Shown one piece after another: positions 25,091 to 40,055 of a DNA stretch of 64,000 bases. The notes under the pieces were generated by a model. It was not told the origin of the DNA and did no database searches. It saw only the letters and a program-made list of their open reading frames with translations. The position numbers and the translations under genes are program-made. The stretch's first letter is position 1; each line of letters starts with the position of its first letter. The stretch lies in the NCBI RefSeq assembly GCF_988243305.1, contig NZ_OZ547136.1. One strand, given 5' to 3'.

Positions 25091-25924
25091 TCAACGCATA
25101 TTCAGTTTATTGGCGTGGTAGGCAATATGCTCGCCAATAAAACTGGAGACAAAATAATAGCTGTGATCATAACCCTCGTGATAACGGATTAACGTCTTGA
25201 TATTCATCTCCTGGCAGATCTTTTCAAGATTTGGAGTCCGCAGCTGTTCTGCGTAAAAATCATCACTCAACCCCTGATCAACCATTATTTCCGCAATGCG
25301 TTGACCTTGTGAAATAAGACTCACCGGATCGTAATCCAACCAGGCTTCTTTATTTTCACCAAGATATGCGGTAAAGGCTTGCTGTCCCCACGGTACTTGC
25401 GATGGGGAGACAATGGGCGAAAACGCCGAGACGCTGACATATTCATCTGGATTACGTAACGCCAGCACCAGTGCACCCAGCCCGCCCATAGAATGACCTG
25501 AGATAGACTTTCTGGCCGTTGCCGGAAAATGTTGCATCACTAAATCCGGCAGCTCGTTGCGGATATAGTCATACATTTTGTAATGTTCATTCCACGGCGC
25601 TTGCGTTGCGTTCAGGTAAAACCCGGCACCTTGCCCGAGATCGTAACGGTCGGCATCTGCGACATGACTGCCTCGCGGACTGGTGTCTGGCGCAACAACA
25701 ATAATGTTGTGCTCAGCCGCGTAACGCTGCATCCCCGATTTAGTAATGAAATTCTGCTCGTTGCAAGTCAGCCCTGAAAGCCAGTACAACACCGGCAATT
25801 TTTCATTCGCGGCTTTTGGTGGGAGATAGACGCCGACATTCATTTCACATTTCAGTGATTGGGAATAATGCCGATACACATTTTGCCAGCCGCCAAAGCT
25901 GGCATGTTTTTCAATGAGTTCCAT
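25091..25924 (-). CDS. frmB: S-formylglutathione hydrolase
   Basis: 277-aa esterase D family ORF; GHSMGG motif. Confidence 0.95.
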   Translation of the reverse strand: MELIEKHASFGGWQNVYRHYSQSLKCEMNVGVYLPPKAANEKLPVLYWLSGLTCNEQNFITKSGMQRYAAEHNIIVVAPDTSPRGSHVADADRYDLGQGAGFYLNATQAPWNEHYKMYDYIRNELPDLVMQHFPATARKSISGHSMGGLGALVLALRNPDEYVSVSAFSPIVSPSQVPWGQQAFTAYLGENKEAWLDYDPVSLISQGQRIAEIMVDQGLSDDFYAEQLRTPNLEKICQEMNIKTLIRYHEGYDHSYYFVSSFIGEHIAYHANKLNMR

Positions 25925-26016: not shown

Positions 26017-27156
<1,140 letters not shown>

Positions 27157-27160
27157 TCAG

Positions 27161-27436
27161 CTATTTAAGATAGGCACGAACCAGTTCAATAGTGTCGTCA
27201 ACGGATTGGCTGACTTCGCGGCTGTAGCAGTCATTTCGGTCAAACGTTTCCCGGATATGGCTTTCAAGCACTTCTGCCATCAGCCCGTTAGCCGCGCCCC
27301 GAACGGCAGCGATCTGTTGGAGTATGGCACGGCATTCGGCATCACCCTCCAGCGACCGTTCCAGAGCATCAATCTGCCCCCGAATACGACGAACTCGAGT
27401 AAGGACCTTTTTCTTCTCTTCCGGAGTACTGGGCAT
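27161..27436 (-). CDS. frmR: Formaldehyde-responsive repressor (CsoR/RcnR family)
   Basis: ORF track 27161..27457; conserved start [21 protein letters not shown] gives 91 aa. Confidence 0.9.
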
Positions 27437-27460
27437 TTCGCACCTCATCATCTGCACGCA

Positions 27461-27513
27461 ATATACTATAGGGGGGTATGCTATATGTCAATGCATACCC
27501 CCCTATAGTATAT
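27461..27513. promoter_or_regulatory. frmRAB operator/promoter: perfect 21-bp inverted repeat (ATATACTATAGGGGGGTATGC / GCATACCCCCCTATAGTATAT) with 11-bp spacer
   Basis: Arms at 27461-27481 and 27493-27513 read directly, 25-77 bp upstream of the frmR start; G6/C6 tracts typical of CsoR/RcnR-family operators. Confidence 0.7.
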
Positions 27514-27623
27514 AACACTGGAGAATAAAATTTATCCGGTGAATGTGGTCGGAAAACAAAGAGGAAAGGGGGTGGGGCTAATCGGCAGGGAAGGCCGCCC
27601 CGGATAGCGGGCGGCAGAAGCAA

Positions 27624-28397
27624 TCAGAATTTCCAGGTCAGATGGGCTGCAAGTTGCAGACCGTTATAATCATCGGTTGGGGTGTCGTACCACACTTTAC
27701 CTGCCGTCAGCCCGAGATTAAGTTGCTCAGTCAGCGGTTGAATACGTTGCAAACTGACGCTCTTCATGCTGCCGTAGCGTGTTTCTGGCGTCCAGTCATA
27801 GGTGTAAGCACCTGTTCCGCGGCTTAGCCATAGTTGCGTATAACCAGTGCCGCGCGGGTCATTCAGACGCACGGAAATCATATTGCTGTAACTACCACCT
27901 GCATCGCTGGAGTCATAATGGGTATAGCGGTAGCTGGAGATCACCGGGCCAGTATAGAGTGATACGCCGCCTTGCCAGGCATCGACTTCGACATCATCGT
28001 AATATTTAGTGTAGCGATAACCGGTCGTGAAAAGCGTTTTTGGCAACAGTGCCAGGTTAATATCCTGACGAAAATCCTGGCGGGCAAAGACCGGCGTATT
28101 ATCCGCAAAGGCAATACCCGTTCGGGTTGTCAGCCAGTTATTCCATTTATACCAGACCGCACCCTGACCGCGAGTGGCATTGAAATGTTCAGTTTCATAA
28201 TCACGACGCCCCTGGGAAAGATTAAAAAGCAGCGTTGCGTTTTCAACTTTCGCCACCAGTTCAGCATACGCTAAATTACGGTTGCCATGATCGCCAGAAT
28301 AATCGGTAAAATCGTAGCCCGCGGTAATGGAAGTTAACCCGGCATAAGCGGGCAATGTGCTAAAAATTGCTGCCGCTAATAACGTCCGTTTTATCAT
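27624..28397 (-). CDS. yaiO: Outer membrane beta-barrel protein YaiO
   Basis: 257-aa ORF with signal peptide, ends in aromatic C-terminal residue. Confidence 0.9.
   Translation of the reverse strand: MIKRTLLAAAIFSTLPAYAGLTSITAGYDFTDYSGDHGNRNLAYAELVAKVENATLLFNLSQGRRDYETEHFNATRGQGAVWYKWNNWLTTRTGIAFADNTPVFARQDFRQDINLALLPKTLFTTGYRYTKYYDDVEVDAWQGGVSLYTGPVISSYRYTHYDSSDAGGSYSNMISVRLNDPRGTGYTQLWLSRGTGAYTYDWTPETRYGSMKSVSLQRIQPLTEQLNLGLTAGKVWYDTPTDDYNGLQLAAHLTWKF

Positions 28398-39372: not shown

Positions 39373-40055
<683 letters not shown>

Follow-up and report, generated by a model that had tools for sequence, protein, structure and literature searches.

The FrmR system is in wide use for biosensing and, in synthetic methylotrophy, as a dynamic promoter, and the element described here is the cis-acting half of this best-characterised bacterial formaldehyde sensor. 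The closest described system is the Escherichia coli frm promoter, Pfrm, in which a large inverted repeat was interpreted as tandem type-1 FrmR sites (Fig. 6a of Denby et al. 2016, Sci Rep 6:38879, PMC5146963), with the repeat centred at -29 from the predicted start. In the same study, EcFrmR bound Pfrm DNA with a Kd of ~220 nM versus ~3600 nM for an unrelated control promoter, formaldehyde dissociated the FrmR-Pfrm complex, FrmR repressed transcription in vitro with formaldehyde lifting that repression, and a crystal structure revealed a methylene bridge between Pro2 and Cys35. The assignment of the E. coli sites was based on sequence inspection and modelling, and the binding data were fitted with a 1:1 model, with one tetramer touching both sites being raised as an option (PMC5146963).

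Two further lines of published work bear on the nature of the binding site. In Salmonella, a 33-bp frmRA probe (frmRAPro) was found to bind two tetramers, each with a KDNA of ~1e-7 M (Osman et al. 2016, JBC 291:19502, PMC5016687), and binding was abolished when one T/A-rich flank of the probe was mutated. In 2024, the constitutive promoter J23100 was reported to become FrmR-repressible once ATAC-N9-GTAT sites had been put upstream of its -35 and between its -35 and -10, and a truncated frmR promoter in which both sites are retained was no longer repressed when FrmR came from the chromosome only (PMC11127321). Given that loss from a promoter with both sites under chromosome-only FrmR, flanking DNA or repressor dosage may also matter. 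The papers that we surveyed gave no footprint at base resolution for E. coli FrmR on the two sites.

The palindrome has been known since 2016, when its two-site anatomy and role were also published, and it has since been reused in engineering. What is added here is context: the functional unit appears to be a 17-bp ATAC-N9-GTAT element that is conserved across Proteobacteria, the mirrored second site with its intervening -35 belongs to an E. coli-like clade and to plasmid copies, and the perfect 21-bp symmetry looks to be a lineage-specific accident and not a selected DNA structure.

A perfect inverted repeat upstream of frmR

The window, by which we mean the whole 64,000-nucleotide stretch of DNA that was analysed, contains a perfect inverted repeat of two 21-bp arms that are 100% complementary and 11 nt apart, as identified by a repeat finder and by direct reading (Table 1). 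The whole palindrome spans 53 bp (27461-27513) and occupies positions -25 to -77 as counted from the frmR ATG. Its coordinates and the complementarity of its arms were confirmed as they had been given in the initial annotation, and the G6 and C6 tracts that had been mentioned there were located at 27471-27476 and 27498-27503, respectively. There is no further extension of the arms, as the flanks ACGCA and AACAC are unpaired. No other perfect inverted repeat in the window has arms as long as these; by comparison, the longest arms in 20 Markov-shuffled windows were 9-12 bp, and the analytic chance expectation for arms of at least 21 bp with spacers of 0-20 bp is ~3e-7 per window. Second to the palindrome in length is a perfect inverted repeat at 39385-39414, which consists of 13-bp arms around a 4-nt loop (TAATGCCCGTCAA GGAT TTGACGGGCATTA).

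The identity of FrmR is based on its annotation as such in E. coli genome records and on the PF02583 assignments precomputed for close homologues. The intergenic region between frmR and yaiO corresponds to 27437-27623. The frmR reading frame is open upstream to a GTG at 27457, which would give a 98-aa ORF. This longer ORF is almost certainly unused, because the annotated ATG at 27436 is preceded by GAGG and yields an N-terminal Pro2. Formaldehyde sensing by FrmR needs this N-terminal Pro2.

Table 1. Coordinates of features of the frmRAB operon and its operator-promoter in the window
Feature	Coordinates	Strand	Basis or remarks
frmB, third operon ORF, directly after frmA	25091..25924	-	ORF; assigned by position and the published frmRAB structure
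frmA, S-(hydroxymethyl)glutathione dehydrogenase, second operon gene	26017..27126	-	ORF; orthologue downstream of frmR annotated frmA
frmR, 91-aa DUF156/PF02583 repressor	27161..27436	-	ATG 27436-27434; Pro2 and Cys35 present
Shine-Dalgarno GAGG, 6 nt before frmR ATG	27443..27446	-	Direct read
Gene-proximal arm	27461..27481	.	ATATACTATAGGGGGGTATGC on + strand
Predicted promoter-proximal FrmR site, ATAC-TATAGGGGG-GTAT	27463..27479	.	Exact ATAC-N9-GTAT; overlaps -10 hexamer
-10 hexamer TAGTAT	27463..27468	-	Consensus scan; 17 bp from -35; within proximal site
Spacer between arms	27482-27492		TATATGTCAAT, 11 nt
-35 hexamer TTGACA	27486..27491	-	Consensus scan; within 11-bp spacer
Gene-distal arm	27493..27513	.	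GCATACCCCCCTATAGTATAT on + strand
Predicted promoter-distal FrmR site, ATAC-CCCCCTATA-GTAT	27495..27511	.	Exact ATAC-N9-GTAT; directly upstream of -35 hexamer
yaiO, upstream of palindrome, same strand as frmR	28397..27624	-	ORF

Two predicted, mirrored FrmR sites bracket the -35 hexamer

In the initial annotation the repeat was taken to be a single, unusually long operator. It is instead best read as two back-to-back type-1 CsoR/RcnR-family operators of 17 bp each, one in each arm, which are mirror images of one another and have the -35 hexamer between them. The motif ATAC-N9-GTAT has only two matches in the 64 kb, one per arm, and no further FrmR target of this form was found in the window. 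The centres of the two sites are 32 bp apart, or about three helical turns, and the sites are in mirror orientation. A consensus scan identified TTGACA-N17-TAGTAT as the sole sigma-70-like promoter of the region, from which transcription would be expected to start near 27456-27458, downstream of the palindrome. The form of the motif, its position overlapping the core promoter and its conservation upstream of orthologues are all those of a type-1 CsoR/RcnR (DUF156) operator. Taken together, it is highly probable that the palindrome is the frmRAB operator-promoter, in which two mirrored 17-bp FrmR sites bracket the -35 and cover the -10. As to function, the proposal in the initial annotation that the repeat is the FrmR operator of the formaldehyde-inducible frmRAB operon agrees with the binding and repression data of Denby et al. 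(2016) and with the comparative evidence on the motif.

Comparison with the described systems shows which features are shared. The E. coli Pfrm of Denby et al. (2016) is the same locus and the same element, with two G/C-rich sites that are flanked by ATAC and GTAT. It differs in that the arms in the window are fully perfect, whereas K-12 MG1655 has a G>T change at the equivalent of 27480, and we count 32 bp between the site centres versus the 31 bp stated in that paper. The E. coli and Salmonella rcnR-rcnA operator (TACT-G6-N-AGTA; Iwig & Chivers 2009), in the account given of it by citing papers, belongs to the same type-1 DUF156 class and has in common with the frm element a G/C tract that lies between TAC../..GTA inverted repeats, the presence of two such sites in a promoter, and one tetramer per site. 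According to the same account, 19 bp separate the RcnR sites, in which the tract is central; in contrast, the FrmR sites are 32 bp apart, have the tract off-centre (TATA-G5/6) and are in mirror-image orientation. The long palindrome results from the two FrmR sites being mirror images. The Salmonella frmRA operator (Osman et al. 2016) matches in its right half, as CCCCCCTATAGTATAT, the half that was left unmutated in the probe, is identical to the E. coli arm. However, it has a single C6 tract with longer T/A repeats on either side, lacks both the second G tract and the 53-bp palindrome, and still binds two tetramers on the 33-bp probe.

Conservation of the 17-bp site upstream of frmR homologues

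To compare the element across species, 80 loci encoding FrmR relatives were collected from representative genomes together with plasmid copies, and 79 of these loci were usable. In 64 of the 79 loci, spanning many genera, an exact ATAC-N9-GTAT was present in the 100 bp that precede frmR, as compared with a single match in the 369,388 bp that make up the rest of the same loci. By this comparison, the 17-bp unit has a strong phylogenetic footprint.

Most species have one site only. In most Xanthomonadales and Burkholderiales this single site is typically ATACTATCCCCCAGTAT and lies 28-45 bp before the ATG. The layout with two sites, TTGAC(A) between them and centres 32-34 bp apart is that of an E. 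coli-like clade in which FrmR is at least 76% identical, and which includes Escherichia, Edwardsiella, Erwinia, Serratia, Deefgea and the copies carried by IncHI2 and IncT (Rts1) plasmids. When 11 two-site promoters were aligned, the TTG did not vary and TTGAC hardly did. Two loci of the Oxalobacteraceae type (L027 and L041) have sites that are only 24 bp apart.

Several individual loci merit description. In Erwinia endophytica, the sites ATACTGGGATATAGTAT and ATACTGGTGTATAGTAT are located 46-79 bp upstream of frmR with TTGACC between them. Plasmid copies of frmR-frmA, whose FrmR is 90-91% identical to that of E. coli, were identified in ~466 plasmid records, and their carriers include conjugative IncHI2 and IncT (Rts1) plasmids in Klebsiella, Enterobacter, Salmonella and Proteus. 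At the two plasmid loci at which both sites could be scored (L004 and L087), there are two mirrored sites with the cores (T/G)TAGTGGAG and CTCCACTA; at loci L086 and L003 only the proximal site is an exact match to the motif. Loci L009, L012 (Tatumella) and L013 (Bisgaardia) have a single composite site of the form TATACTATAC-TCCCA-TATAGTATA. In the Tatumella/Bisgaardia composite an exact ATAC-N9-GTAT overlaps a copy with one mismatch at an offset of 5 bp, and this arrangement resembles the single-tract Salmonella operator that binds two tetramers. Two records look mislabelled or contaminated, namely a "Bacillus subtilis" contig (L042) whose frmR promoter is of the Stenotrophomonas type and a "Xanthomonas citri" contig of 620 bp that encodes a FrmR (P0050) 98% identical to that of E. 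coli.

Proposed mechanism and stoichiometry

Specific binding of FrmR to Pfrm, its reversal by formaldehyde, and repression both in vitro and in vivo have been shown in published work. In the mechanism that we propose for the locus in the window, tetrameric FrmR would occupy both sites when formaldehyde is absent, most likely with one tetramer per site, and bound FrmR would block RNA polymerase from the -35/-10 region. Formaldehyde would then cross-link Pro2 to Cys35 between subunits and so remodel the DNA-binding surface, upon which FrmR would leave and frmRAB, including frmR itself, would be transcribed. That E. coli FrmR binds precisely at the two 17-bp sites, with one tetramer on each, and that it acts by occluding the promoter, we infer from the sequence and its comparison with relatives, from the effect of the flank mutation in Salmonella and from the behaviour of the transplanted sites.

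An alternative to independent occupancy is that a single FrmR tetramer, or one higher-order assembly, contacts both sites with both of its faces and bends or loops the 32 bp between them. This possibility was raised by Denby et al. (2016), who pointed to the FrmR sites being farther apart than those of rcnR-rcnA (31 versus 19 bp; PMC5146963), and it is also in keeping with the spacing staying at 32-34 bp throughout the two-site clade. However, the single-tract Salmonella probe binds two tetramers (PMC5016687), RcnR binds as one tetramer per site (cited in PMC5146963), the sites of the two Oxalobacteraceae-type loci are separated by only 24 bp, and most species manage with one site. On balance we regard such bridging as unlikely, and prefer the reading in which each of the two sites would be occupied by its own tetramer.

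Variation of the palindrome within E. coli

The exact 53-bp sequence was found in 3554 of the 5426 complete E. coli genomes (~65%). The G>T change at 27480 is present in K-12 MG1655 and 1032 other records and leaves 19 perfect pairs, such that at least ~19% of E. coli genomes, K-12 included, have a mismatch next to the loop. Another of the sampled variants is at 27481. Both this and the common K-12-type variant affect the inner end of an arm and leave the 17-bp sites untouched. A rare sampled variant, that of strain 06-00048, is changed at 27493 and, within the C tract of the distal site, at 27502-27503. E. albertii has arms that differ at their inner ends and in one C of the tract.

Over 27380-27640, strain CFSAN061770 is a 100% match to the window, and K-12 additionally differs from it by a C>T change at 27457. 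In the O157-type strain ERL06-2497 (L083), homology breaks ~16 bp past the distal arm, from about 27529, and the adjoining upstream gene is fbpC (ferric ABC transporter) in place of yaiO, with the palindrome being kept. Furthermore, ~1,130 of 5,416 matching records cover <80% of 27380-27640. Based on the break in homology beyond the arm and on this partial coverage, the frm operator-promoter is located at a strain-variable junction.

The symmetry of the arms

The length and perfection of the palindrome raise the question of whether its symmetry is itself selected. The pairing of the 21-pair stem was assessed in the alignment of 11 two-site promoters against 500 column-preserving shuffles. The stem was paired in 79.6% of cells versus 77.2% in the shuffles, with 31 of the 500 shuffles reaching the observed value, and the covariation score was 0.145 versus 0.137, a level that was reached by 166 of the 500. 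Across the 11 two-site promoters, the arms are not kept complementary by compensatory changes, contrary to what would be expected of a structural palindrome under selection. In view of the variation within E. coli, the sequences of the relatives and the covariation test, the complementarity of the arms appears to follow simply from a half-palindromic motif being present twice, and the perfect 21-bp symmetry is probably not a selected feature but a by-product, in one E. coli lineage, of two mirrored sites that are nearly the same.

These data bear directly on the suggestion, made in the initial annotation, that the DNA could form a cruciform. Were a cruciform extruded under negative supercoiling, it could alter the geometry of the promoter or the binding of FrmR and thereby make frmRAB control supercoiling-sensitive. 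The 21-bp arms are indeed perfect and a fold energy of -21.5 kcal/mol was obtained for the single strand (z = -7.4 versus shuffles), but the same energy is expected of any perfect palindrome and is uninformative on function. Besides the near-shuffle levels of stem pairing and covariation, the core pairs are broken in 3-5 of the 11 promoters, and the Erwinia cores are direct repeats, matching at 7/9 positions in direct orientation versus 2/9 when inverted. The loop-adjacent mismatch of K-12 and many other E. coli genomes speaks in the same direction. In terms of kinetics, an unpaired 11-nt centre disfavours extrusion. The cruciform proposal was not upheld, since complementarity is not kept beyond the half-sites, the inner 2 bp vary in E. 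coli and the Erwinia cores are in direct orientation, and we consider a regulatory cruciform at this promoter to be extremely unlikely.

Perfectly mirrored arms do occur with different cores in different lineages, these being G6/C6 with 21-bp arms in E. coli and GTGGAG/CTCCAC with 18-bp arms in the IncHI2/IncT plasmid lineage. One explanation would be that mirror symmetry is kept either by copying from arm to arm (hairpin-templated repair or gene conversion) or by selection for a symmetric, bridging FrmR-DNA complex, and if this were true the palindrome would be more than two independently evolving operators. We judge this to be improbable. Concerted evolution of the arms was considered and rejected, as the identity of arms within a genome (6.4/9) is barely above that between genomes (5.5/9) in what is a small sample of 8 lineages, and the stem is without significant covariation.

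A hairpin could also act in the RNA, either by terminating or processing transcripts that read through from yaiO or as part of an frmR leader. The position of yaiO upstream of the palindrome on the same strand would allow for the former, and the stem would be long if transcribed. However, no intrinsic terminator was found in 27300-27750, in which the sense-strand stem is followed by TGCGTGCAGA and has no T-run after it, and a terminator for yaiO was accordingly dropped as a candidate. A search of Rfam 15 at a permissive E-value returned only miRNA-hairpin noise (20-27 bits versus gathering scores of 73-139), the best match being mir-7961 at 26.8 bits versus a gathering score of 90, and all matches were thus sub-threshold. 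The predicted frmR start lies downstream of the palindrome in our own scan as well as in Denby et al. (2016; PMC5146963), and the stem shows no compensatory conservation. A role for the hairpin in RNA therefore seems most improbable, all the more since O157-type strains keep the palindrome even though yaiO is replaced 16 bp past the arm.
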